A DNA stretch of 32,000 bases from Vibrio vulnificus CMCP6 (GCF_000039765.1 NC_004459.3:330001-362000), one strand, 5' to 3'; numbered from the stretch's first letter, positions 4,776 to 32,000 are shown. Translations and numbers: made by a program. Notes: a model not told the origin generated them from the letters alone.

Positions 4776-6335
4776 TTACATTGTGTAGGTGTATGGCGCT
4801 TGAACACCCAGCGGAATACCCACTGCCCAGTAAGCAAGCAAGAAGATCGTCCAACCAATCAGCATCGCAATAGAGAATGGCATCATCAGTGATGCAAGCG
4901 TACCGATACCGGTTGATTTCACGTAACGTTGACAGTAAACAACAACGAGTGGGAAGAACACCATCAAAGGTGAAATGATGTTGGATACAGAGTCACCCAC
5001 ACGGTAAGCCGCTTGAGAAAGCTCTGGAGAAATACCCACAGCCATTAGCATTGGAACTAGGATAGGACCAATCAATGCCCACTTAGCCGATGCTGAACCG
5101 ATAAGTAGGTTCACTGACGCCGTCAGCAGAATCATACCAACGATGGTCGCTTCACCCGGCAGGTTCATCGCTTTCAGACCTTCAGCGCCGTAAAGCGCCA
5201 ACATGGTACCGATGTTTGACTGAGCAAATGCCGACAAGAACTGTGCACAGAAGAACGACATCACAATGTATGCGCCCATCGTCGACATTGTTGTTGCCAT
5301 CGCTTTGATGATGTCGTTACTGGATTTGAACGTGCCAGACACACGACCGTAGACATAACCAGGGATGATAAACAGGATGAAGATCAATGGCACAATTGAC
5401 TTCATGATCGGAGCAGAGAACGCCGTAATTTCACCATTTGGTGAACGCAGCGCTGAGTTTTCAGGCCAGATAGCCGCGATAAGCAGCGCAATACCTGCCA
5501 TCATCGCCCAACCAGCGTAACGGAACGCTTTCGATTCTAACTCGGTGAATGAACCAAGATCCGGTGCTTTTTCCGCATCGTCATCAATCGGAGTACTCGC
5601 TAGACGAGGCTCGATGATTTTCTCTGTCACATACCAGCCAATCGCAATGATGATCACCGAAGAAAGACCAGTGAAGAAAATGTTCGCCAGTGGGTTAACC
5701 ACGTATGCAGGATCCAGAACCTGAGCTGCCGTTTGTGTAAAGCCAGCCAATAGAGGGTCGATACCTGAAGGGATAAAGTTGGCCGAGAAACCACCTGATA
5801 CACCCGCAAACGCAGCCGCGATACCCGCAAGAGGGTGACGACCTGCCGCATGGAAAATGATACCACCTAGAGGAATAACCAGTACGTAGCCTGCATCCGC
5901 TGCGGTGTGCGATACGATCGCCACCAAAATCAGCATAGGAGTCAGAAGCTTAGCTGGCGTGAAATTCAGCATCTTCTTAAGGCCTGTGGTAATAAAGCCT
6001 GAAGAGTCCGCAACACCGACACCAAGCATCGCCACTAACACGATCCCTAGAGGTGCAAAACCAGTAAACGTGGTCACCATGTTTGCAAGGAAACTGGCTA
6101 ATGATTCACCGGTTAGAAGGTTTTTGATTGCAAGAGCGTCGCCAGTTCGAGGATTGATAAGATCAAACGAAACGTTTGACAAAAGTGCAGACGCAGCCCA
6201 AGTAATCACTAGTGCCCAGAAGAACAAAATCGCAGGATCTGGGATCTTGTTCCCTACCCTTTCGATGAAGTTCAAAAAACGATCCATACCGCTCGGCTTC
6301 GGCGATGGCGCTTGATTTACAGCTTGGTTACTCAT
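4776..6335 (-). CDS. AbgT-family (p-aminobenzoyl-glutamate / MtrF-type) transporter
   Basis: 519-aa polytopic membrane protein. The N-terminus FIERVGNKIPDPAILFFWALVI resembles the AbgT signature (ERxGNKxPxP). GGAG RBS. Confidence 0.8.
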   Translation of the reverse strand: MSNQAVNQAPSPKPSGMDRFLNFIERVGNKIPDPAILFFWALVITWAASALLSNVSFDLINPRTGDALAIKNLLTGESLASFLANMVTTFTGFAPLGIVLVAMLGVGVADSSGFITTGLKKMLNFTPAKLLTPMLILVAIVSHTAADAGYVLVIPLGGIIFHAAGRHPLAGIAAAFAGVSGGFSANFIPSGIDPLLAGFTQTAAQVLDPAYVVNPLANIFFTGLSSVIIIAIGWYVTEKIIEPRLASTPIDDDAEKAPDLGSFTELESKAFRYAGWAMMAGIALLIAAIWPENSALRSPNGEITAFSAPIMKSIVPLIFILFIIPGYVYGRVSGTFKSSNDIIKAMATTMSTMGAYIVMSFFCAQFLSAFAQSNIGTMLALYGAEGLKAMNLPGEATIVGMILLTASVNLLIGSASAKWALIGPILVPMLMAVGISPELSQAAYRVGDSVSNIISPLMVFFPLVVVYCQRYVKSTGIGTLASLMMPFSIAMLIGWTIFLLAYWAVGIPLGVQAPYTYTM

Positions 6336-6614
6336 GGTAACTCCATAATCAATGATGTTGGTGCCAATGGCTTCTTAAAATTATTGTTTCAGCCTATTTT
6401 TCAACGTTTGATTCTATTAAATCCGTTTAAGAAAAGCACAAGGTTCCGAAAGTTTTTCCATATTTGGAGACATATTTTGCAAAAACACAATCAATGTGCA
6501 ACAAATTAAATACAATCAAAAACCCTTTTTTGAAACAAAAACGACACCATATTGAAATACATCACGATAACAACTGAAGCACCTGCCACCATTTAACCAC
6601 TCAATATCAACTCA

Positions 6615-7031
6615 TCACATATCAAATTCGCTGTATTTGGAAATCATTGTTTTAAGCTCAATAGAGTGCGAATCACCTAGCCGATCCGTCCACGTAGTTT
6701 TTATCTCTATTGTTTTTAAGGCACCGGAAACACTACTGCTAGGAACATTCCAATACACGTTGTAACCACTAGCAACAGCAGAACTTCCCGCAGAGAAATC
6801 TGTCGAAAAGTCAGCCCCAGAAATAGATGACATAGCATCAGAAATACCACGTGTCCGAAACCATTCGAGTTTTTGTTCTGCTAAGTTGAGCGCCTCAATG
6901 CTCCTCTCAGCAAAATCAGCTTTACGCTCCATGTACACTTGAAGTTTTATCAACCCCAAGGCTCCGATACCAATAAGTAGAAAAGAGATCAGCACTTCTA
7001 TCAAACTGAAACCACTTTGCTTACAAATCAT
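6615..7031 (-). CDS. type IV pilus minor pilin, PilV-like (last gene of operon)
   Basis: Prepilin signal MICKQSG|FSLIEVLISFLLIGIGALG, with Gly-1, Phe+1 and Glu+5. Start chosen at Met15 of the ORF (7031), overlapping the upstream gene by 11 nt. Confidence 0.7.
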   Translation of the reverse strand: MICKQSGFSLIEVLISFLLIGIGALGLIKLQVYMERKADFAERSIEALNLAEQKLEWFRTRGISDAMSSISGADFSTDFSAGSSAVASGYNVYWNVPSSSVSGALKTIEIKTTWTDRLGDSHSIELKTMISKYSEFDM

Positions 7032-8319
7032 TCCAGCTCCCCTTCTCCCATGCGTAAAAAATAACGGGATCAACCACCTCTTCTATATTGTCTCTATTGA
7101 AAGCAAAGTTCAGTGAGTTTGCGAAGTAAGCTGCATAGCTTGGACTATCTAAAACTTGCCCTCCAGAGAAAGTGAATGCCCCTCTTTGAAAATAAACAAT
7201 TCGGTTTTTACTCAACCCTGTAAAGTGAACAACCTCTGCAAAATGATCTTTTGCTTCAAAGTTATCCCAAAGAGTATCTAAGTTAGTTGGTGCTGTTGTA
7301 TGAAGTTGATACAGCATTCCAGGAAACGTCATCGCGCCATGTGCAGCAAAAATGCCGTTGTGCACTAGTAATAAAACAGGATCCCCTCCCGAACTAACAA
7401 AAGCCTCGGAAATATGATCGATCCCACCTTTAATCGGGTTACCGTTTGAATCGGTTGGATAATTACCATTAATTTTTGTGGAAGACGTAAATTCACACGA
7501 ACCCGTTACCCATATTCTTCGCTTACCTGCGTTTATCTGATCAGCCACTTTTTTTCCACAATCCGTAACTATCTGATCCAACACGTTGTCAAAATTTACA
7601 GTGGCAAAGTTGAGATTAGTTTTTACGCTACTCCAATTGGATCTCTGCACTCTGAAAAGATCATAGAAAGGCTCCAGAGCGCCATCCTGAATAAAATCAT
7701 CACCATATCCAGTATCTGCGGAGATATTGGTCTTGTGCGAAGCTTTACAATCTTTAGATTTATGATTGAAGCCTTGATATGGAACACTGCCATGTATCAC
7801 GCCTTGGTTAGTGGCGCCTGATCTAGAGTGAAATGCACTTTTGTAACGGATTGCTGTACATTCCCATCCATCATCAAAATCACCAGGATCAGGTGTAGAA
7901 AAAGTAGCACTACCGTTGATATAGAGATCGGAGCTACTTTTCAGAGCACCGCTAGATGCACCACGACTCAGTTTAAGAGTTTTGCTTATCGTCGCATGTC
8001 CGCTAGAGGCTACTTTGCTCGTAATTTTATTGTTGCTATCGATAGCAAGATTAGACAGTCCTAATGGGTTTTTACACGTAGAAGGAAAAAGAGTAGTTGC
8101 AGCAAGAATATCACCTTGCTGTCTGACAAGCGCAAACGCGCACTCCAATCCCCCCTCCGCTTTCCAGTAACTTTGCCGTGACAATACCTCATTTTGCGCT
8201 CGTTTGATTTGATAAAGCAATGTTTTATAACTACCTAAAGTCGCCATGAGTGCAGCGATCAGCAATACACTCGTAACAAGCAAGGTCGTCGCACCTTGTT
8301 CACGATTTATCATTGCCAA
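7021..8319 (-). CDS. large PilX-N-like minor pilin / pilus-associated protein
   Basis: 432 aa. The N-terminus MAMINREQGATTLLVTSVLLIAALMATLG is typical of PilX_N-type proteins. Overlaps both neighbours, which suggests translational coupling. The rest is unrecognised. Confidence 0.55.
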   Translation of the reverse strand: MAMINREQGATTLLVTSVLLIAALMATLGSYKTLLYQIKRAQNEVLSRQSYWKAEGGLECAFALVRQQGDILAATTLFPSTCKNPLGLSNLAIDSNNKITSKVASSGHATISKTLKLSRGASSGALKSSSDLYINGSATFSTPDPGDFDDGWECTAIRYKSAFHSRSGATNQGVIHGSVPYQGFNHKSKDCKASHKTNISADTGYGDDFIQDGALEPFYDLFRVQRSNWSSVKTNLNFATVNFDNVLDQIVTDCGKKVADQINAGKRRIWVTGSCEFTSSTKINGNYPTDSNGNPIKGGIDHISEAFVSSGGDPVLLLVHNGIFAAHGAMTFPGMLYQLHTTAPTNLDTLWDNFEAKDHFAEVVHFTGLSKNRIVYFQRGAFTFSGGQVLDSPSYAAYFANSLNFAFNRDNIEEVVDPVIFYAWEKGSWNDL

Positions 8320-8987
8320 TTCCTCTGCGTTACTGAGAATGAAACGTTTTCTTTACTGGATGGGAGGTCGGTCAAGCGCGTAATCAATTCAATATCAAAA
8401 TAAGCTGACGTCGCACCACCACCCGCTATATTTTTCTGCACTACATTGAATGCCTCTACCTGGATCTGGCTAGCCACAAATAAAGAATTACAGGAGTTTA
8501 CAAATGAACCGGCAAAATTGCTCGCTTGAGCTGTCGTAATCAAATAATCTAACTCCTTTTCACATATTCTAAGAATGTGACTATCATTATCTCTTTGTTC
8601 ATAAACTACATTCTTATATAGCGGCGTTGCTCCAGACATTTTGGTAAAATAAGCGTAAGCAATTAACCCCTCATCTGCACTATTGTGTGAATAGATCACC
8701 GTGGTTGCCCCTGATAGTCTGACCGTTTGACCATTACTTCCATCATAGCCAGCTCTCAACATGTCTGAATGCATCATCTGCGTAACACTCCTTGTGTTTT
8801 GCAATAACATCAAATCTTTGCTGCGCTTCGCTGACGCATTTTGTCCTTGAATAAAAATCGAACCAACAACACCTAATGCAAACAAGCCAATAGTTGCGGA
8901 TATCATAAATTCGACCAACGAGGCACCTAACTGCCTCTTACGTTGAAAAGAAATTTGTTTAGCAACGAGGGTAGCCATAGTATTCAT
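8310..8987 (-). CDS. type IV pilus minor pilin, PilW-like
   Basis: Prepilin-like N-terminus ...KRQLG|ASLVEFMISATIGLFALGVV with Glu+5. Start is ambiguous (Met at 8987 or 8978). Overlaps the upstream FimT-like gene. Confidence 0.6.
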   Translation of the reverse strand: MNTMATLVAKQISFQRKRQLGASLVEFMISATIGLFALGVVGSIFIQGQNASAKRSKDLMLLQNTRSVTQMMHSDMLRAGYDGSNGQTVRLSGATTVIYSHNSADEGLIAYAYFTKMSGATPLYKNVVYEQRDNDSHILRICEKELDYLITTAQASNFAGSFVNSCNSLFVASQIQVEAFNVVQKNIAGGGATSAYFDIELITRLTDLPSSKENVSFSVTQRNWQ

Positions 8988-9471
8988 CACTCTGGTTATC
9001 ACTACATAGGCGGAAACGGGCAGAACGATTATGCGCAATTAACTTAATTGCTTTCGTAGATTCACCTGTAGGGTAAAAACGGATGTTGCCCTGACTAGGA
9101 CGGCCATAAACACCATCAAAACTGATCTGATCAGACGGGAACTGCGATTTAACTAATACTCCTTTGTAAGGAGCACCCGAAAGATTAAGCAAGACAGTAC
9201 CAATTCCTGGAGTTGCATTGTCAGTAAGTTCAATTTTCCAAGTCCCTAAACTATCCCCATTAGCTGCGATGGAAATATGTGCCCAAAGATTTTGTCGACG
9301 TAATACAGCCTCCGATTTTGCTTGGATAACAAAGCCATGCAATTCATTTCCTAGTCTCTGCATTTTGGTTGTATTCGTAACACCAGTAAAACTAGGTACT
9401 GCCCAAGCTAAAATTACAGCCAGTACAGCCACTGTAATTAAGAGCTCCAAAAGTGTGAAGCCGCGAGTCAT
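8959..9471 (-). CDS. type IV pilus minor pilin, FimT/GspH-like (first gene of operon)
   Basis: MTRG|FTLLELLITVAVLAVILAWAVPSF is a canonical class III signal with Phe+1 and Glu+5. Start chosen at Met15 of the ORF (9471). Confidence 0.7.
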   Translation of the reverse strand: MTRGFTLLELLITVAVLAVILAWAVPSFTGVTNTTKMQRLGNELHGFVIQAKSEAVLRRQNLWAHISIAANGDSLGTWKIELTDNATPGIGTVLLNLSGAPYKGVLVKSQFPSDQISFDGVYGRPSQGNIRFYPTGESTKAIKLIAHNRSARFRLCSDNQSDEYYGYPRC

Positions 9472-9573
9472 TTCCCAAATTCCTATGTAATCTATTGCTA
9501 AGCAACAATTCAACTTGCACCAATGCTAGCACCATAGAAAAATAGGAGGAAAATCAACGAGGAAGTGTTCGTG

Positions 9574-25130: not shown

Positions 25131-25497
25131 GGGGCTGATTTAGGATTCGACGGGAATTTTGCAGTCTGAGGTGCATGCCGAGGTGCGGTAGGCCTCGTTA
25201 ACAAACCGCAAAAAAATAGTCGCAAACGACGAAAACTACGCACTAGCAGCTTAATAAACTGCTCAGAGCCCTCTCGCCCTAGCTTCCGCTTGTAAGACGG
25301 GGAATCACGAGGGGTCAAACCAAATCAAGCTGGCGTGGATTCCCCCACCTGAGGGATGAAGCGTAAGATATAATTCAGGTTAGCTATTCATTCGCGTGTC
25401 GGTTCGCAGGTGGTAGTGAAATTAAAGATCGACTAAGCATGTAGTACCAATGATGAATGGTTTTCGGACGGGGGTTCAAATCCCCCCAGCTCCACCA
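25131..25497 (+). ncRNA. ssrA: transfer-messenger RNA (tmRNA, 10Sa RNA)
   Basis: 5' GGGGCTGATTTAGGATTCGACGGG. Internal tag reading frame GCA AAC GAC GAA AAC TAC GCA CTA GCA GCT TAA TAA (25222-25257) encodes ANDENYALAA. 3' tRNA-like end GGACGGGGGTTCAAATCCCCCCAGCTCCACCA. Confidence 0.97.
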
Positions 25498-25510
25498 AAC
25501 ATCAAAACGA

Positions 25511-25538
25511 AAGCGCTCGGAAGAGCGCTTTTTTTTTT
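25511..25538 (+). terminator. rho-independent terminator just after ssrA
   Basis: AAGCGCTC-GGAA-GAGCGCTT followed by a 10-nt T-run. Confidence 0.8.
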
Positions 25539-25625
25539 CGCCTGAAGCCTTATAGAACGGGCGCTCATCACACTTTCGGAAATCTGAATCGTTCGGAAGC
25601 GTTCGGTTGAAATCGGTGCAATCCG

Positions 25626-25709
25626 CCAACTTTTGTTCCCCGTTGCGTTCCCCAATTCCCCCAATTATATTGCTGGGGAACAGTTGGCGTCCCCGACTAT
25701 TTTGGGGAG
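25626..25709. promoter_or_regulatory. repeat cluster upstream of int (candidate integrase arm-type or operator sites)
   Basis: CCAACT(TTT)GTTCCCC at 25626-25641 is inverted to GGGGAACAGTTGG at 25675-25687. Direct copies occur as GTTCCCC (25635), GTTCCCC (25647) and TTCCCCC (25656), plus GTCCCC (25689) and GGGGAG (25704). Confidence 0.4.
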
Positions 25710-25725
25710 CACTAAAAGGATCTAA

Positions 25726-27084
25726 ATGATGGCTAGAAGAAACCCTGACAAAACTTATGATAAGGCATCTCTGCAAGACGGCAAGAAAGAACAACTCATC
25801 AGCGACGGTGATAATCTTTATCTTCGCTTGCGCTTGGGAAAAAATAAAAAGACGAAAAAATCTTGGCAATTCAACTATCATCATCCACTGACTAAAAAAC
25901 GCATCAAACTAACAATCGGAAACTATCCCGCACTTACACTCAAAGACGCTCGAAAGAAGGCGGAAAATTATCTAGAGTTACTTGAAAAAAACATCGATCC
26001 TCAAGAGTACGAGCGCACGGGTGGCATTAACGCAATTGATCCAGACAAGCGACTCTTTAAAGACGTAGCTGAAAAGTGGTTTGAAGAAAAAATATTGGCT
26101 GAAGACAAAAAGAAGCGACAAGAAAAAATTGACGATGCAAACAAGCGTGCGAAAGATGAAGGTCGAGAAAAAGCATCAGAACAAGAGCTTGAAGCAGTCT
26201 TGCGCGACATCAGATACTCAAAAGACATCCGAGGGCGCTTAGATAACCACATATTACCCGCTTTGGGCAATATACCGATCACTAAGATGGAGACCTATCT
26301 TGCTCAAGAAGCATTGCAACCCAGCTACGCGAAGGGTATAAACATGGACAAGATTTGTCAGATCTCTAGTCGCGTCATGGGGTATGCTAAAAAACTGGGC
26401 TATATGAAATCAAACCCGCTCAGTGACTTGAGTGAAGTGTTTGTGAACAAGCGCAAACAAAAGCAACCTTCAATCAAACCCGAAGGGCTAAGTGAGCTGA
26501 TGAAAGCAATGGGTGAGCGCAACATAACTAAAGTCACCCGCGCTGGTTTTGAAATGCAAATGCACACACTGGCACGAGCATCAGAGATAGCAAAAATGCG
26601 GTGGGACGAAGTCGATTTTGAGAATAACTTAATAAAAATACCGAGCTATCGAATGAAGCGCTTAAATGAGCATTTCATACCGCTGACTAAATACACGCGT
26701 GGCTTACTGGAGTACTTAAAACCGTTTAGCTCTCATCTTGAGTATGTTTTCCCCGCAGATCCACGCTCATCTCGACCGCACATGAATCAGCAGAGCATCA
26801 ACGCAAACCTAAAGCGAGCTGGCTTTAAAGGTGAACTTGTATCGCACGGATTCAGACACATGGGCAGTACTTTTTTGAATGACTCAAAAAAATACGGAGC
26901 GAATGAGAAGTTTGACGCTGACGTGATCGAAGCATGCCTTGCGCATTGCGATAACGACAAGATTCGTGAGATCTACAATAGCGCAGAGTACATCGAGATG
27001 AGACGAGAGATTCTCGAATTCTGGGGCGATTATATCGTCGAACAAACAGCTAACTATCACTCAATCGCCGCTCGCTTCAAGTAA
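25726..27084 (+). CDS. int: tyrosine-type site-specific integrase, P4-like (DUF4102-type arm-binding N-terminus)
   Basis: 452 aa. N-terminus DGDNLYLRLRLGKNKKTKKSWQFNYHHPLTKKRIKLTIGNYPALTLKDARKKA is a P4 Int arm domain pattern. Catalytic residues: R in LARASEIAKMRWDEVDF, HxxR in HGFRHMGST, H in CLAH, Y in IREIYNSAEY. AAAGGA RBS. Confidence 0.92.
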   Translation: MMARRNPDKTYDKASLQDGKKEQLISDGDNLYLRLRLGKNKKTKKSWQFNYHHPLTKKRIKLTIGNYPALTLKDARKKAENYLELLEKNIDPQEYERTGGINAIDPDKRLFKDVAEKWFEEKILAEDKKKRQEKIDDANKRAKDEGREKASEQELEAVLRDIRYSKDIRGRLDNHILPALGNIPITKMETYLAQEALQPSYAKGINMDKICQISSRVMGYAKKLGYMKSNPLSDLSEVFVNKRKQKQPSIKPEGLSELMKAMGERNITKVTRAGFEMQMHTLARASEIAKMRWDEVDFENNLIKIPSYRMKRLNEHFIPLTKYTRGLLEYLKPFSSHLEYVFPADPRSSRPHMNQQSINANLKRAGFKGELVSHGFRHMGSTFLNDSKKYGANEKFDADVIEACLAHCDNDKIREIYNSAEYIEMRREILEFWGDYIVEQTANYHSIAARFK

Positions 27085-27093
27085 CCTACACCA

Positions 27094-27118
27094 CAGCCCT
27101 CTCATGCTCAGAGGGCTG
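27094..27118 (+). terminator. stem-loop downstream of int
   Basis: CAGCCCTCT-CATGCTC-AGAGGGCTG forms a 9-bp perfect stem. No T-tract follows. Confidence 0.5.
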
Positions 27119-27160
27119 AATTCCCCCTTCCACCACTACACCCTTCAAAATAAACCTGTC

Positions 27161-27254
27161 TTTTATTATACATAACGCGCTTAATAAAATTACTTTTATT
27201 ATACATAGCACGCCCAATAAAACTTACTTTATTATACATAGCAACTTCATCAAG
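27161..27254 (+). repeat. three tandem direct repeats with 33-bp phasing (core TTTATTATACATA[A/G]C)
   Basis: Three copies: TTTTATTATACATAACGCGCTTAATAAAATTAC, TTTTATTATACATAGCACGCCCAATAAAACTTAC and TTTATTATACATAGCAACTTCATCAAG. The cores start at 27163, 27196 and 27229. Confidence 0.85.
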
Positions 27255-27548
27255 TTAACCAAATTAAAAATCTTTAATGTGAAAATCTTAAAAAACACTT
27301 TACAAACCATCTTTTCGATCATAACTTAATCAACTCGCACAACTGCGAAGCAAAAGCATTATAAAGTGCAGCAACTGCTTTTATAAAGTTGCAAACAAAT
27401 AATAAGCAAAATAACTTTAAAATAATATAACAACAAAGAGTCTATCGTAACTAGAAGTGCAGACAGCGTATCAGCACTCAGTACAACTGATTCACTAACT
27501 AATTATTTAAAACGAATGCTTTTGTTTGTTTGAAAGGCTTAGTAAAGA

Positions 27549-27809
27549 ATGAACGAACTACAATTTATGTCGCTAAAAGAAGTAATTGAACTTGTTACAC
27601 TAAAGAAAACTGCGATTTACGATAAGATAAAAAAAGGCGAATTTCCACCGCAAATTCGCATGGGCGGTAACACTATTGTATTCATCAAATCAGAGCTGGA
27701 ATTTTACTTAGCTAGTAAAATTCTTGAGAAAGATGAGAAAGAGACAGTACAAAAAATCTTAGAGAAGCGAGAAGAGACGTTTAAGCCGATTCTTGAGATG
27801 TATATGTAA
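27549..27809 (+). CDS. AlpA-family (prophage CP4-57-type, MerR-like HTH) regulator / putative excisionase
   Basis: 86 aa. MSLKEVIELVTLKKTAIYDKIKKGEFPPQIRMGGNTIVFIKSELEFYL matches the AlpA/HTH_17 pattern (L.l.ev....gvs..tiY..i..G.FP.p.k.g.r...W...ev..w). Confidence 0.8.
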   Translation: MNELQFMSLKEVIELVTLKKTAIYDKIKKGEFPPQIRMGGNTIVFIKSELEFYLASKILEKDEKETVQKILEKREETFKPILEMYM

Positions 27810-27822
27810 GATGCAAGATATT

Positions 27823-27852
27823 AAAAAGCCAGCTCATCGAGCTGGCTTTTTT
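27823..27852. terminator. bidirectional rho-independent terminator (alpA-like / hns-like)
   Basis: AAAAA-GCCAGCTC-ATC-GAGCTGGC-TTTTTT. Confidence 0.85.
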
Positions 27853-27861
27853 GTATGGTGA

Positions 27862-28365
27862 TTATAAACCGTACTTTTCGGGATGAGCAAGCATGTAATC
27901 TTTAACTTCTTCTTCGCTCATTCTGTAGTTATCTAGCTCACCGCTCTCTTTTGCAGCTCTGAAAACTTCTGGAGAGCGTCCTTTACCAGACCAGACGTGC
28001 TCTTCGTCATCTAAAACAATGCGGTATTGTGGACGTGTCGGTGCGTTCTTTCTCTCTTTGTTATTGCTAGTCTTTGTGCTTCTAGTGCGAGCTGCAACAC
28101 TCACTTTAAAGCGAGCAGCAATAGCTAAAGCAAACTCTTCTTTCGAGATAGACTCTTCTTCTAAATCGCGCTCAATGCTATCAATCAAGTCTTCGATCTT
28201 TTGCTTGCGCTCAGCCTCTTGCTTCTCTTTCTGCACTTGGACAGCTTCTGTCGCTGCTTTAGTGAATGCTTGAACAGCATCGCCCCCCAGTGAGGCAAGC
28301 TTTTCAGCTAGGTCTGGTGACTGTAGAAGCGCTTGCAATTGCTCGTTTGTTAGCTCTTTACTCAT
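27862..28365 (-). CDS. H-NS-family nucleoid-associated protein, island-encoded
   Basis: 167 aa. Helical, charged N-terminus consistent with a coiled-coil oligomerisation region. The C-terminal RPQYRIVLDDEEHVWSGKGRSPEVFRAAKESG matches the H-NS DNA-binding core (Y....G....TWTGQGRTPAVI). About 25 extra C-terminal residues follow. Confidence 0.75.
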   Translation of the reverse strand: MSKELTNEQLQALLQSPDLAEKLASLGGDAVQAFTKAATEAVQVQKEKQEAERKQKIEDLIDSIERDLEEESISKEEFALAIAARFKVSVAARTRSTKTSNNKERKNAPTRPQYRIVLDDEEHVWSGKGRSPEVFRAAKESGELDNYRMSEEEVKDYMLAHPEKYGL

Positions 28366-28680
28366 TGTTTTAGTGTCTACTTTTGAACTTCAATGTGTAT
28401 AATTTAAAGTAAATCAAAGAGCAAATAAAGCTCTCATTTAAAAATAATCAGTAATCACCATGTAAATTATTTACAAAACCTGCGCTTGGTGAGCACATTC
28501 TATTTTAAGAATATAAATAACCACTCTTCAATTTATTTAGAAATAAAAAGAAAACACCTCCCCCTCATTTTTTTATAAAAATAGACCCGCACTGCATTAG
28601 TTACTTTCTTTAAACGAATAATACATATGCATTAACACTGCATGTTTAAGTAGAAAATATGCATACACGTAGAATGACTT

Positions 28681-28737
28681 TTCGTGCATCGCACTTTGAC
28701 TGCTTACATGTAGTGCGAACAAAGCACGATGCACGAA
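28681..28737. repeat. large imperfect inverted repeat in the AT-rich hns-mob spacer (candidate oriT hairpin)
   Basis: TTCGTGCATCG-CA-CTTTG (28681-28698) pairs with CAAAG-CA-CGATGCACGAA (28720-28737). The stem is 11 + 5 bp with a 2x2 internal loop and a 21-nt apical loop. Confidence 0.6.
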
Positions 28738-29002
28738 GACCATTTTTTATTAAAATAATATATTTTATAATGATATTTCAATGGACATTATAATACATAC
28801 AATCTTATAATATAAGTACATAGTTAGTAACAAGCGGATACTGCTCTTCCCCATTTGTTCCAAATGGCTCGTTTGTAGCTTTAGCCTCCCCTTCAGTCGG
28901 TTGCGCTAACATGCTTCGCAGTTATCGCTAAGTCGCACGCTGTTGCTTACTAGATAAATAAGATAATAAAAATAAAATAATAATAAAAAGAGAAATAATA
29001 AA

Positions 29003-29755
29003 ATGAACTTATCATTAAAAGAAGAATTAAATAACACAATAAGAGAAATAGTAATCGAAACTAAAAGAGAAAATAAAGATAAACTAAGAGCGCTTATTGA
29101 GAAAACAGATTACAGCTTAGAAGAATTACAAGTTGTTGTACCTTCCCTACTTCCGCAATTTTCAAGCACATCTAAAATTACGCTAAGTTCTCATGCGCGT
29201 TTTTGTAATTGCATTGTAAAAAGTATTTACGCTAAAAATAATGCAGATAGCTTTAACGATGATGTTGTTACTGAATCACTTCGCATCCTGGACGCTGTAG
29301 AAAACGGCTTTAAAGAAGAGCGTAAAAAAACTAAAGACTTATACAATATTGCATTAAAAACACACATAACTGTAGAGCAGTACAAACGTTTCATAACCAG
29401 CAAGAAAAGTCACAACTATCGCTCTAACGCTGCTTTTCTTAGAGATGTAGCCTTGAACCAAGTCGAACCACGTCCGAACAATGACGAAGATTATTTGAAG
29501 TACTTTAAAGAAACCAAAGAGCTATCAAAATCACTTCAGGTGCTTGCAGAAGACATTGAAGATGCTGACAGCGCTAAGATAGCTAAACTAAGCAAATGCA
29601 TTAAAGAACTTAAGGAAAGCATTGATACTACGCGCAAGCTAGCAATAGACTCTCATTCATCAGCAACAGCTAAAGTACTAGCTTTAAAATACTTATCTTC
29701 GCGTCAATTGGATGAGCTATGCAAACAAAAGATACTAGAAGAAGCTGAATTATAA
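29003..29755 (+). CDS. hypothetical coiled-coil protein with a MobC/RHH-like segment (putative relaxosome accessory protein)
   Basis: 250 aa. The segment IALKTHITVEQYKRFITSKKSHNYRSNAAFLRDVALNQ (aa 116-153) has a ribbon-helix-helix / MobC-like pattern. The gene lies immediately upstream of the relaxase gene. Confidence 0.4.
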   Translation: MNLSLKEELNNTIREIVIETKRENKDKLRALIEKTDYSLEELQVVVPSLLPQFSSTSKITLSSHARFCNCIVKSIYAKNNADSFNDDVVTESLRILDAVENGFKEERKKTKDLYNIALKTHITVEQYKRFITSKKSHNYRSNAAFLRDVALNQVEPRPNNDEDYLKYFKETKELSKSLQVLAEDIEDADSAKIAKLSKCIKELKESIDTTRKLAIDSHSSATAKVLALKYLSSRQLDELCKQKILEEAEL

Positions 29756-29765
29756 AGCCTGAATT

Positions 29766-29787
29766 CCCTCCTTAAATATAAGGAGGG
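29766..29787 (+). terminator. stem-loop between the MobC-like and relaxase genes
   Basis: CCCTCCTT-AAATAT-AAGGAGGG forms an 8-bp perfect stem. The U-tract is weak, so it may only attenuate. Confidence 0.4.
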
Positions 29788-29842
29788 CTTATCTACATTA
29801 CTTATTACTTTCTCACTCACAATAATAATAAAGAGACAATAG

Positions 29843-31348
29843 ATGGTATTTACAGAATTAGAATGCACAAGAAGTCAACAGACAGCCAGGGACGCACAGA
29901 ACCTTATAGAGTACGGCGCTAAACAAAAAGATGCAGATAACCTCGTAAAATACGGTGCAGGTAAAACAAAACATGCTCCAGCATCAGAAGGTCACTCATT
30001 CTTCATCTGCGCTAACGAAATAGAGTCCATCCCAGTCAGCATGGGCGAACTGGCTACTGGCGCTGACTGGCACGATGCTATCACTGAGCTTCAAAGCTCA
30101 TACAGACATAATCCACACGTCAAACACCCCTTCCGACATTTCGTCATCTCTATAGACGAAGGAGAGCGACTTACAGACAAGCAATGGCGTAGAACAGTTA
30201 GAAAGACTATGAATCGTCTTGGTTACAAAAACGCACGCTACATCGCATTTAGACACGAAGATACTGATTCTCAGCACGTACACATAACAGTATCAACACA
30301 AGACTTGGAAACAAACAAAGTCATCAGCAACTGGATGTCTGTTGAAGCTGCACAAGAAATCATGCGCGAACAAGAAAAAGAGTTTGGATTAAGACAGCTA
30401 GAAAACTCATCAGAGATATTAGCTAAAGGCGAAGCAGTCGTTTCGGACAAGTACTCTCACTCAGTCAAGTTAATGATGAGACGGCTAATCGGATCAAGTA
30501 TTAAAGAGCTACCGATGCTAGTGCAAGCCAGGGCAAATAATCTAACAAAACTAGGTGTAAATGATGAGCACACTAGTAAAGCGAGCTTGGCTCTTTATCA
30601 AATAGCACTGCTAAGGAACGGCGTTGAGATAATACTTAAAGAAGACAGAAACAACGAAAAATTTATCGGTCTTGTTTACAAATACAATGACTTCATCATA
30701 CCCGCCTCAAAACTCAGGAGCGGTAACAAATTCACGCTCGGCGGTTTAATCAAATCTGGTGTTCTAGCAAGTGATGCAAACATGATAAGTAGTTATGACG
30801 AGTCACAAGTTGAAAATTACGAAATTAGAGAAATGTTTGAATCGCAGAAAGATTTTGCAGAGCAAAGATTTGAAACAGTAAGAAAAGACGCTGAAGCACA
30901 TGCTGATAAAGTAAAGAAGCAAGCTGAAGAGTGGGATAAGCACATGTTTAACTGCTTCATTATCTCGTGTAGAAAGCAGCACCAAAAAGCGATGGAAGAT
31001 GCTATCGACTTTTGGCTCTATCATGGCAAGCGCATCAACAAACGCGACAAAGCTTTCGTTCACGCAATTTACGAACAAGAAAAAGGCATTTACTCAGCAT
31101 CTAAGACGCTAAGTAAATTCTTCTATCACCTGCTTCTAATCTTGTTCGAACTGAACAAGAAAAATCACTGGGAATTGAAAATCACCCCTGTCGCGACACA
31201 TGAAGATCAAGAGCTAGCAATTAACCAAGCTATTGAAAACATAGAAAAAGCGTATGAAAACGAAGGTATCTTTGCTGACAATAAAAAGCAGAATAGAAGA
31301 CATAACACTAGGAATAAATCAAAAGATATCGCTGAAAACACATATTAA
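29843..31348 (+). CDS. relaxase / mobilisation nuclease (MobA/VirD2 family, PF03432-like N-terminal domain) with an unknown ~330-aa C-terminal region
   Basis: Histidine triad AFRHEDTDSQHVHITVS (H138, H145, H147; HxDx(n)HxH). Preceding FRHFVISIDEGERLTDKQW block. Candidate catalytic Tyr in NLIEYGAK / NLVKYGAGK near the N-terminus. Confidence 0.8.
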   Translation: MVFTELECTRSQQTARDAQNLIEYGAKQKDADNLVKYGAGKTKHAPASEGHSFFICANEIESIPVSMGELATGADWHDAITELQSSYRHNPHVKHPFRHFVISIDEGERLTDKQWRRTVRKTMNRLGYKNARYIAFRHEDTDSQHVHITVSTQDLETNKVISNWMSVEAAQEIMREQEKEFGLRQLENSSEILAKGEAVVSDKYSHSVKLMMRRLIGSSIKELPMLVQARANNLTKLGVNDEHTSKASLALYQIALLRNGVEIILKEDRNNEKFIGLVYKYNDFIIPASKLRSGNKFTLGGLIKSGVLASDANMISSYDESQVENYEIREMFESQKDFAEQRFETVRKDAEAHADKVKKQAEEWDKHMFNCFIISCRKQHQKAMEDAIDFWLYHGKRINKRDKAFVHAIYEQEKGIYSASKTLSKFFYHLLLILFELNKKNHWELKITPVATHEDQELAINQAIENIEKAYENEGIFADNKKQNRRHNTRNKSKDIAENTY

Positions 31349-31351
31349 TTT

Positions 31352-31379
31352 AAAAAAAGAGGGCTGAAGCTCTCTTTTT
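31352..31379 (+). terminator. rho-independent terminator of the relaxase gene
   Basis: AAAAAAAGAGGGC-TGAA-GCTCTCTTTTT. The stem has one G-U pair. Confidence 0.7.
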
Positions 31380-31535
31380 ATTTTAATAATACAAACAACA
31401 AATAGCTTATTATTTAAAACCACCAAGCTAAATAGTAATTTTAATATAAATACTTGCATTATAATTGATATTATAAATTTAAATGCTACAATTAAAACAC
31501 AATAATAATAAATATAATATTAAAGAGATAATAAT

Positions 31536-32000
31536 ATGAGCATTTTTAAAAAAATAAATAATGAGTTAACTTATAACGTTACAGTCACACCTAAACAAAA
31601 GAAATCTCCCCTTCCTCGATTTCAGAAAAACAAAAGCGGCAAGATGCTTTACATCATTGTCCGAGACCCTGAGTCGACAAACTCAAGTGGCAACGCAACG
31701 CATGTAACATTAATAAAGCTACCAATAACAGCTCCTGCATGTCCTCGCTCAATAAAAGACTTAATTGCAAAGTTCGGTACTGAAGAAGCTAAATCTGGAA
31801 AGTACGAAATCACGGAGCACAACTTTGAAGAAATCATGTCTCACTTTAAACCAGCTAATGCGCTATACAAGAAGTACAGAAAAGAAGAACTGCATGAAAA
31901 GCAAAGTGTTGTTATCAATGAAGATAAACACTCTCTTTGTGCAATAGCTGCGAAACTGCATGAAGCTGTAGAGATGTTTGACGAGCTAGAAAGTGAGGAT
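31536..32000 (+). CDS. hypothetical protein, 5' part (ORF open to the window end, so absent from the ORF track)
   Basis: ATG at 31536 follows AAAGAGATAATAAT. 155 codons run without a stop: MSIFKKINNELTYNVTVTPKQKKSPLPRFQKNKSGKMLYIIVRDPESTNSSGNATHVTLIKLP...HEAVEMFDELESED. No motif recognised. Confidence 0.55.
   Translation, partial: MSIFKKINNELTYNVTVTPKQKKSPLPRFQKNKSGKMLYIIVRDPESTNSSGNATHVTLIKLPITAPACPRSIKDLIAKFGTEEAKSGKYEITEHNFEEIMSHFKPANALYKKYRKEELHEKQSVVINEDKHSLCAIAAKLHEAVEMFDELESED

Follow-up and report, generated by a model that had tools for sequence, protein, structure and literature searches.

CP4-57, the cryptic prophage of E. coli K-12 from which the Pfam AlpA family takes its name, encodes an AlpA regulator that activates intA and thereby triggers excision, and phage satellites of the P4-like and PICI kinds, which measure ~10-15 kb, are defined by psu, delta and sid or by packaging and capsid-remodelling genes. 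SGI1 and the Vibrio MGIs are chromosomal IMEs of Vibrio and its relatives that use the T4SS of a helper (IncC plasmids or SXT/R391 ICEs) and count yicC among their targets. Other integration sites of these elements are trmE or dusA, not ssrA (PMC7449626, PMC8409611). The ssrA hotspot is that of VPI-1 in V. cholerae and VPaI-2 in V. parahaemolyticus, neither of which is described in PMC2491623 or PMC12082036 as encoding a relaxase; in V. cholerae it is occupied in all non-pandemic strains examined and constitutes a hotspot for defence islands. PIMEs, which are defined by a replicase co-occurring with trbJ and trbL and which have been reported in Vibrio species too, in the characterised cases excise and replicate, with an IncP plasmid as the helper that mobilises them (bioRxiv 10.64898/2026.01.12.698999). 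Finally, the EARL/ROD21-like islands are AT-rich (35.7-39.2% GC) and combine an integrase and an RDF with an H-NS homologue of their own; relaxases occur in certain EARL clades, and ROD21 has been reported to be transferable by conjugation (PMC7074111).

The window analysed here, a 32,000-nt stretch of the Vibrio vulnificus CMCP6 genome, closes with 6.5 kb that probably form the left arm of a 35.1-kb IME at the ssrA 3' end of a V. vulnificus CMCP6-type genome. The earlier note on this DNA had already proposed an IME, and the proposal gains support from att repeats, from an integrase and a relaxase backed by HMMs and from the lack of a T4SS. An integrase is accompanied by direct repeats at a defined target (Pfam domains, 15-nt repeats and empty sites), and the element brings its own relaxase (PF03432, 83 bits, with an invariant Y37 and HxDx4HxH motif) along with an oriT predicted from a 122-nt block. 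T4SS and coupling-protein families found no match in Pfam, NCBIfam or PHROGs among the ~36 island ORFs, about a dozen of which are without any annotation, and the same three collections returned no phage structural module in the window or the remaining island, so that the note's statement that conjugative pore, T4SS and phage structural genes are missing holds for the window and for the whole island alike. Composition likewise bears out its description of an AT-rich final 6.5 kb with nearly pure A/T stretches: GC amounts to 37.6% in the whole island versus 46.5% in the core part of the window, the profile drops from ~0.46 to 0.32-0.41 beyond 26500, and near-pure A/T tracts are seen (e.g. 28950-29002). 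From its sequence we infer that the island can be mobilised, and it is a well-built but fairly ordinary case of an already known kind of element.

The integration target, ssrA, lies outside the island proper and encodes the tmRNA at 25131-25497 (+) (ARAGORN; Rfam RF00023, 252.9 bits). Core synteny had been said to stop at the CCA end of the tmRNA (25497); that end is confirmed, and the island junction falls 3 nt past it, where identity with the empty ssrA sites of L033, L040 and L041 ends. The attL core, a 15-nt direct repeat CCAGCTCCACCAAAC at 25486-25500 (+), was defined by its counterpart at attR and by empty-site comparison. Walking a near-identical contig past the window end led to attR, where the same 15 nt of the ssrA 3' end recur 35,086 bp downstream of attL, as the earlier note had anticipated; the two repeats regenerate the tmRNA 3' end, and in L042 an exact 12-nt repeat plus AAC at attR is followed by native post-ssrA sequence. 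In related genomes, ssrA is empty or differently occupied, with empty sites in other V. vulnificus strains, contrary to what would be expected if these genes resided at the locus in every relative. The native ssrA terminator is replaced by an island-supplied hairpin plus T-run at 25504-25537 (+) (inverted repeat I9), a position at which different islands at ssrA each bring a hairpin of their own. Three GTTCCCC motifs at 25635 (+), 25647 (+) and 25675 (-), forming a cluster at 25635-25681, are candidate arm-type integrase-binding sites by virtue of their enrichment near the att ends: the island contains 8 copies versus 1.6 expected, and all but one of the eight are no more than 250 bp from an att end; sibling island L035 shows the same layout, as does attR of L043-L045. 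Past attR lies a HipA/HTH islet bearing 108-bp repeats of its own, and a second integrase island comes next at ssrA in L045.

The recombination module opens with a P4-type tyrosine integrase of 452 aa at 25726-27084 (+), recognised by PF00589 (70 bits), PF13356 (65 bits), PF22022 and the NCBIfam PRK09692 integrase domain (290 bits). It is followed by the phased repeats to which the earlier note had drawn attention, three copies of TTTATTATACATA spaced every 33 nt at 27162-27240 (+) (a 33-nt unit present ~2.5-2.8 times in repeat analysis), of which the sibling L035 has two at identical spacing; a further copy with 1 mismatch occurs ~150 bp upstream of rep, where ~0.3 such matches would be expected by chance, and the repeats are possibly an operator or iteron-like site. 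Next comes an AlpA-family HTH protein of 86 aa at 27549-27809 (+) (PF05930, 42.5 bits), carried in identical form by several Vibrio species and probably an excision activator or recombination directionality factor. The profile matches uphold the original integrase and alpA calls. Between the convergent alpA and hns genes, the inverted repeat I3 (27818-27856, strandless; 18-nt arms, 89% complementary) is a probable bidirectional terminator.

The hns gene, at 27862-28365 (-), encodes a 167-aa H-NS-family protein with the C-terminal DNA-binding domain. Support for this earlier call is marginal, in that PF00816 scores 26.7 bits vs a cutoff of 25.6 and covers residues 112-143; a GKGR motif occupies the position of the H-NS Q/RGR loop, database sources label the protein H-NS family, and the sibling island encodes a version with 94% identity. 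In Pfam, the N-terminal oligomerisation domain PF22470 has no match in the protein, whose N-terminal half yields weak matches to unrelated families, none near cutoff. The protein probably tempers expression of the AT-rich island DNA. The placement of such a gene between recombination and mobilisation modules had not been recognised as that of a described island family; EARL/ROD21 (PMC7074111) provides a precedent, while the Vibrio family itself does appear to be unnamed.

Just upstream of the mobilisation genes, a non-coding block of 122 nt at 28826-28947 (+) hardly varies among 5 loci in which the genes on either side share 76-95% identity. Where the genomic context differs, homology sets in at this block, and plasmid P2 matches it at 72% over 107 nt in the equivalent position; its conservation makes it the best candidate for the oriT of the island, and PLSDB contained no conjugative plasmid resembling it. 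The ORF at 29003-29755 (+), always directly upstream of the relaxase, encodes a 250-aa all-helical protein of a Vibrionaceae-only family, which judged from position alone is a putative relaxosome accessory protein. The label "RHH/MobC-like" given to it in the earlier note found neither HMM nor fold support: Pfam and NCBIfam revealed no MobC, RHH or ParA signature, the best profile match was a weak one to Tn5252_Orf10 (E = 0.047), and an AF2 model (pLDDT 70) had no fold match in Foldseek or PDB profiles. The relaxase assignment, HxDx(n)HxH triad included, is supported. The 501-aa protein at 29843-31348 (+) is a MobA/VirD2-type, MOBP-like relaxase (PF03432, 83 bits), in which Y37, H99 and the triad H138-x-D140-x4-H145-x-H147 are invariant or nearly so in distant relatives, thereby displaying the N-terminal Tyr plus HxDx(n)HxH of MOBP relaxases within its PF03432 domain. 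The nearest NCBIfam model is TraI_MobP (NF041893), at 69.9 bits and below the cutoff of 250, and MOBP typing by MOB-suite applies only to a 43%-identical plasmid relative.

At 31536-32000 (+) the window end cuts an ORF of 259 aa, complete at L001 11694-12473, which had been taken for the start of the cargo. It is instead conserved backbone that accompanies the relaxase, its counterparts being 88% identical (sibling island) and 69-89% identical (L008 and L009), and an 85-aa HTH gene always comes next; the variable cargo begins ~0.8 kb past the window end. The prediction that cargo, perhaps for defence, would lie beyond 32000 proved accurate, since an OLD nuclease, PDC-S42, a PD-Lambda-2-like beta/cII cassette and an AAA_35 pair are found there, and the payload is mainly anti-phage defence, with umuDC and a ParE-like toxin as further cargo. 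The far end of the island carries a CyRepA1-like gene (E = 5e-42, 144.6 bits vs a cutoff of 200), the product of which also matches phrog_4913 'replication' (109 bits) and has a homologue on plasmid P2; it is probably a replication gene.

These components can be arranged into a life cycle in which AlpA would turn on or direct Int-mediated excision to a circle, which the CyRepA1-like protein may replicate, and the relaxase, probably aided by the 250-aa protein, would nick oriT within 28826-28947. A single strand would then leave via a co-resident conjugative element, through its coupling protein and type IV secretion system, and in the recipient Int would put the circle back into ssrA. The H-NS-like protein would probably damp expression of the AT-rich DNA.

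A second V. vulnificus strain and one more Vibrio assembly have the same backbone at ssrA with different cargo, and backbone proteins 75-95% identical occur in V. parahaemolyticus, V. alginolyticus, V. harveyi, V. diabolicus and Photobacterium damselae; the element belongs to a Vibrionaceae IME family with swappable cargo that apparently has no name. Since a backbone at one site in several species with differing cargo requires recent movement, this distribution argues against the unlikely alternative that the island is what is left of an integrated mobilizable plasmid or IME, decaying and immobile, fixed at ssrA and kept only for its defence cargo. Some island copies may be decaying, because IS3 fragments lie inside the cargo and one strain has lost the start codon of the 250-aa gene to a 59-bp deletion; in the same direction point the presence of the exact relaxase protein on only a few contigs and the absence of the predicted attP junction from public metagenome and viral collections, the latter result being uninformative. 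However, the backbone ORFs are all full length with invariant catalytic residues, and the att repeats and arm-site clusters are undamaged at either end.

It is also conceivable, if highly improbable, that the 35 kb are a stack of at least two separate islands at ssrA, with only the left 7 kb going with the relaxase. The site does gather tandem elements, as the islet after attR and the second island of L045 illustrate, and a segment from mid-orf259 to the 85-aa HTH gene recurs, as does umuDC separately, in strains with other flanking genes; yet no further att core turned up in a search of the 35 kb between attL and attR, the sibling island combines the right-arm genes orf236, orf86, orf110 and orf78 with the left arm, and the two outer ends bear arm-type sites that share one motif. 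Barely plausible, in turn, is a phage satellite, P4-like or PICI-like, moved by the hijacked capsid of a helper phage and not by conjugation. A P4-type integrase with AlpA at ssrA recalls CP4-57 and P4-like elements, the large replication protein matches a phage PHROG, and homologues of P4 cII and beta are present, but the cII/beta cassette, which many unrelated islands also carry, is portable cargo, the PHROGs search revealed no capsid-hijacking, size-determination or packaging genes in any ORF, 35 kb is ~3x the size of P4 or PICIs, and a complete relaxase and oriT module would be of no use to such an element.

Considered as an IME, the island resembles CP4-57 and the other int/alpA elements of P4 type in its target (the ssrA 3' end), its integrase class and its AlpA regulator, whereas CP4-57 is a prophage remnant devoid of relaxase or oriT. 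SGI1 and the MGIs use different mobilisation proteins or mimic the oriT of the helper, and the present analysis found no sequence relationship between them and the island. VPI-1 and VPaI-2 reside at the same hotspot in the same genus and differ from it in cargo and backbone (PMC2491623, PMC12082036). With PIMEs (bioRxiv 10.64898/2026.01.12.698999) it has in common int and alpA at the left end, mobilisation genes and a large, immune-rich accessory region, to which a probable replication gene of its own may be added, and a PIME-like life cycle of excision, replication and helper mobilisation is what we propose for it. It differs from them in that no trbJ or trbL homologue was found in any island ORF, a luxR-family regulator is lacking, hns is present and the relaxase is of a different lineage; its Rep may differ as well, being CyRepA1-like by profile match where PIMEs have repA or repC. 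EARL islands resemble it in being of the excisable type, in targeting a tRNA-class gene, in their integrase, RDF and island-encoded H-NS homologue and in their low GC content, yet they occur in Enterobacteriaceae, integrate at tRNA-Asn instead of ssrA, have no reported replication gene and possess unrelated integrase and relaxase lineages (PMC7074111); unlike their H-NS homologue, that of the island matches the C-terminal domain only.

Among plasmids, a related relaxase (43% identity) occurs only on P2 of V. parahaemolyticus CHN25 (NZ_CP010886.1), which is classed as mobilizable and its relaxase as MOBP. P2 differs from the island in being a free 83-kb circular replicon with proteins 27-43% identical to those of the island, and the 25 kb of it that were examined showed no integrase. 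It shares an AlpA-like gene, the homologue of the 250-aa protein, the oriT-block match in its proper place, the Rep-like homologue and defence-like cargo, and is a free-plasmid cousin of the island family.

The reading of the DNA behind the tmRNA gene as a mobilizable genomic island, put forward in the earlier note, is supported by our analysis with two corrections: the 250-aa ORF upstream of the relaxase gene shows no RHH or MobC signature, and orf259, a 259-aa ORF starting at 31536 that had been taken for the beginning of the cargo, is part of the backbone module. The element is well delimited, and its excision and transfer are predicted from its sequence. The tmRNA gene lies at 25131-25497 on the forward strand (Rfam, 252.9 bits), and the window agrees with the empty site up to the CCA end plus AAC and diverges afterwards; GC content is 0.32-0.41 beyond 26500 against about 0.46 before, and 37.6% for the whole island against 46.5% for the core part of the window. 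A repeat of the ssrA 3' end had been predicted downstream of the window, and it is there: absent from the first 15.8, 21.1 and 29.5 kb of the island, it was reached on the fourth step of a walk along a near-identical contig (L001, L016, L029, L042), where attR reads CCAGCTCCACCA followed by native post-ssrA sequence and ends 35,086 bp past the tmRNA gene, the direct repeat at the island ends being 15 nt long (CCAGCTCCACCAAAC). A search for attR in umuDC-bearing loci of other strains (L010-L015) returned none; these loci have in common with the island only the stretch from mid-orf259 to an 85-aa HTH gene and, separately, umuDC, and therefore could not define the island end. By exact-sequence lookup, the island proteins are AAO08896 to AAO08919 of V. 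vulnificus CMCP6 and occur also in a few near-identical strains. Over the 7 kb compared, locus L005 matches the window at 100% identity, and L001 is 99% identical except for a 59-bp deletion in the hns-mob spacer.

The ssrA gene is known as a universal hotspot: in V. cholerae defence islands sit there, and in V. parahaemolyticus it is the site of VPaI-2 (PMC12082036, PMC2491623). When its occupancy was compared in ten V. vulnificus strains with identical SmpB (L032-L041), three had an empty site, with a 580-aa acyltransferase gene directly after ssrA; the other occupants are a HipA/HTH pair, type I restriction-modification islands (including that of YJ016), a BREX island and, in strain FORC_036 (L035), a sibling of the CMCP6-type island. 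The V. vulnificus ssrA locus is a highly polymorphic hotspot, found empty or with HipA, either of two type I restriction-modification islands, BREX or the present island family, and those islands that have an integrase each carry a different P4-type enzyme and bring their own replacement terminator hairpin. Behind attR lies a second islet, of HipA/HTH type and without an integrase, which is flanked by its own 108-bp repeats containing the same 12 nt, so that ssrA here carries a tandem array. This toxin-antitoxin islet of 2.5 kb (L042 1900-3728, with repeats at island +35,075 and +37,561; also L032 10909-13509), whose direct repeats consist of the last 12 nt of ssrA and the native terminator region, stands alone at ssrA in some strains and follows the 35-kb island in the CMCP6-type contig.

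Of the five protein assignments made at first reading, Pfam backs the integrase, AlpA, H-NS and relaxase and leaves the RHH/MobC-like label of the 250-aa ORF without support. The tyrosine integrase carries an arm-binding domain (PF00589, PF13356, PF22022), AlpA matches PF05930, and the H-NS C-terminal domain (PF00816) is a marginal hit (26.7 bits; cutoff 25.6). The phased repeats reported between these genes are real (TTTATTATACATA, three copies at 33-nt spacing, 27162-27240), and a near-perfect copy of the 33-nt repeat, of which about 0.3 matches would be expected by chance, lies some 150 bp upstream of rep. There are eight copies of the heptamer GTTCCCC in the island, whereas shuffled sequences lead one to expect 1.6; seven of the eight lie within 250 bp of the island ends, three near attL (window 25635, 25647 and 25675) and four near attR, and the same layout is found in the sibling island and in the attR regions of three other strains. 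These clusters fit the pattern expected of arm-type sites for the N-terminal arm-binding domain of the integrase and are candidate sites, and their presence at both ends speaks for an attP with its two halves intact. AlpA would act as an excision activator or recombination directionality factor (RDF), a role that we assume from the CP4-57 and Vibrio Vef precedents. The predicted attP junction (…GAGTACGCCAGCTCCACCAAACATCAAAACG…) was not found in metagenome and viral collections, which says little.

The mobilisation module includes a relaxase of the MobA/VirD2 type (29843-31348, 501 aa; PF03432, 83 bits). Its alignment with relatives down to 20% identity shows no variation at Y37, H99, H138, H145 and H147 and hardly any at D140. 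Its nearest NCBIfam model is TraI/MobA(P), with a score far below cutoff, and its full-length family is small, with six representatives (50% level) at E <= 1e-30 among 1.84 billion proteins, while the nuclease domain has 132 at E <= 1e-10 in the same search. Vibrio olivae and Vibrio sp. EA2 have the same module in other surroundings, the homology beginning at window 28805-28826 and comprising a non-coding block, the 250-aa ORF, the relaxase gene, orf259 and the HTH gene. Within the non-coding block, the 122 nt at 28826-28947 are almost invariant in five loci where the flanking genes are only 76-95% identical; this stretch is the best oriT candidate. A DNA search of the mobilisation module against plasmids gave no match, and the oriT candidate resembles no conjugative plasmid; the short block alone gave a weak match, to plasmid P2. 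Neither the relaxase nor the Rep-like protein gave anything useful when compared by sequence with solved structures.

The 250-aa protein (29003-29755, + strand) belongs to a family confined to Vibrionaceae (58 clusters), and its AlphaFold model, built from 18 sequences, is wholly helical with a mean pLDDT of 70. Pfam, NCBIfam and PHROGs gave no support for a MobC or RHH identity, nor did a scan restricted to the core segment, the AF2 model, a Foldseek search of the PDB (no match, best E = 1.9) or PDB profiles, and this identity was rejected. Public records name it 'chromosome partitioning protein ParA' or 'chromosome segregation ATPase', and neither a P-loop nor a ParA domain is detectable, so that the ParA name looks like a propagated error. 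Solely from the position of its gene, we propose a putative role as relaxosome accessory factor. The 59-bp deletion of L001 (~9170, corresponding to window 28952-29035), seen in one strain, takes out an AT-rich tract together with the start codon of this gene, whose next in-frame ATG gives a 239-aa product.

The left arm of the island measures 7.1 kb, lies inside the window except for its last 0.7 kb, and runs attL, int, the 33-nt repeats, alpA, hns (on the opposite strand), the non-coding block, the 250-aa ORF, the relaxase gene, orf259 (L001 11694-12473) and an 85-aa Xre-type HTH gene. The variable middle holds PDC-S42 (PADLOC, 104 bits) accompanied by two small ORFs, and an OLD-family nuclease ('Old' in PADLOC, 186 bits) whose partner has 114 aa. 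IS3 fragments and umuDC are found there as well, together with a four-gene cassette (for an HD hydrolase, an M78 peptidase, a Beta protein and a cII-like/sce7726 protein) and an AAA_35 protein paired with a DUF676-ATPase. The right arm consists of a gene-free 2 kb with a 77-bp tandem array, orf236, orf612, a ParE-like toxin with small ORFs, orf86, orf110, orf78, a gene for an 832-aa protein and attR. No island ORF matches T4SS, coupling-protein, capsid or packaging families, except for a 72-aa ORF with a weak likeness to a tail-protein fragment.

For the 832-aa protein, matches were found to CyRepA1, a family of plasmid-replication proteins (E = 5e-42; 144.6 bits, under the curated cutoff of 200), and to a phage 'replication' PHROG (109 bits). 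In two related loci (L044, L045) rep has neighbours of 100% identity, but Rep itself is a 30%-identical allele, a case of the replication gene being swapped modularly within the island family; that allele (5000-7650, against L042 5174-7672) encodes 874 aa, and orf86, orf612 and orf236 there are 99-100% identical. The 77-bp array, which lies outside the window about 25.0-25.8 kb past the tmRNA end (L042 13440-14257), between the variable cargo and orf236, varies in length, with about 11 units in L042, 13 in L046, 15 in L048 and 19 in L044. Each unit begins with the near-palindrome TCCCATGCGTGGGA, no match to the array was found in Rfam, plasmids or phages, and it could bind protein in the manner of a centromere or of iterons.

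The FORC_036 sibling shares this backbone, with protein identities of 81% for int, 99% for alpA, 94% for hns, 76% for the 250-aa ORF, 95% for the relaxase, 88% for orf259, 86% for the HTH protein, 94% for orf236, 98% for orf86 and 78% for orf110, and carries different cargo (DUF4238, an HNH protein and an nSTAND1 protein). V. parahaemolyticus, V. alginolyticus, V. harveyi, V. diabolicus and Photobacterium damselae have backbone proteins that are 75-95% identical; one backbone at one site, with different hosts and cargo, is the trace expected of a recently mobile element. The sole related plasmid, P2 of V. parahaemolyticus CHN25, is typed as mobilizable with a MOBP relaxase, and its relaxase is 43% identical to that of the island. 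It also has an AlpA-like gene and homologues of both the 250-aa protein and the Rep-like protein (E = 1e-30 for the latter), and at the position equivalent to that of the oriT block its sequence matches this block at 72% (E = 0.03). P2 looks like the free-replicon cousin of the family.

Among known systems, PIMEs resemble the island in combining int, alpA, rep and mob with immune cargo, but are defined by trbJ and trbL, both of which the island lacks, and their Rep and regulator families differ from its own. EARL/ROD21 offers the precedent of an AT-rich excisable island with an H-NS homologue beside integrase and RDF, and relaxases occur in some of its clades; its site, however, is tRNA-Asn in Enterobacteriaceae, whereas that of the present island is ssrA. 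No paper naming the present Vibrio island family was found in the literature. A speculative reading, which we consider rather unlikely, is that the island represents an uncharacterised Vibrionaceae 'integrative plasmid' lineage, which would combine AlpA/Int excision, CyRepA1-like replication, the conserved 77-bp array next to orf236 as a centromere- or iteron-like maintenance or copy-control site, a divergent MOBP-like relaxase with a new all-helical accessory family for mobilisation, H-NS silencing, and recognition of the helper by protein compatibility as opposed to oriT mimicry.

These findings outline a route by which anti-phage defence genes may travel between Vibrio species, human pathogens included: the defence cargo is interchangeable, and a compact backbone (int, alpA, hns, oriT, relaxase … rep) delivers it to ssrA, a universal site. 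In general terms the principle is not new, IMEs, ssrA defence islands and island-borne H-NS all having been described before, and the CMCP6 genome has been public for two decades. The family can serve as a tractable model for how relaxase-bearing islands choose a conjugative helper, for whether post-excision replication raises transfer, and for the role of an element-encoded H-NS on an AT-rich island.

Several further observations concern the cargo and its distribution. PADLOC scores the four-gene cassette (island +16.6 to +19.5 kb; L022-L031) as beta (162 bits), cll (71 bits) and capP-like (103 bits), with PD-Lambda-2 B and C weaker. The cassette was seen in ten or more unrelated island contexts, of which some have other integrases, with an identical cII-like protein in all of them. 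By source names, this protein and 90%-level relatives of the cassette proteins extend to Vibrio, Photobacterium, Salinivibrio and Pseudoalteromonas, and the cassette is a candidate defence unit of high portability. The stretch from mid-orf259 to the 85-aa HTH gene and, separately, umuDC (L001 11819-12936 and 20201-21506) recur in L010, L011 and L014, where they bracket other defence cargo (AbiV/Mrr/AAA_13, DndB-like and AAA_15), and in L010 the left neighbour, in the place of the relaxase gene, is a CoA-disulfide-reductase-like gene; the pattern looks like either a hotspot for the exchange of cargo or another element with modules in common. RefSeq names from Marinomonas gallaica are attached to several of the backbone and cargo proteins, beside consecutive V. 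parahaemolyticus accessions (HCH09335xx), pointing either to transfer beyond Vibrionaceae or to a mislabelled or contaminated assembly. In the core part of the window, the interval 6000-9500 has a GC content of 0.40-0.43 against 0.46-0.50 around it.
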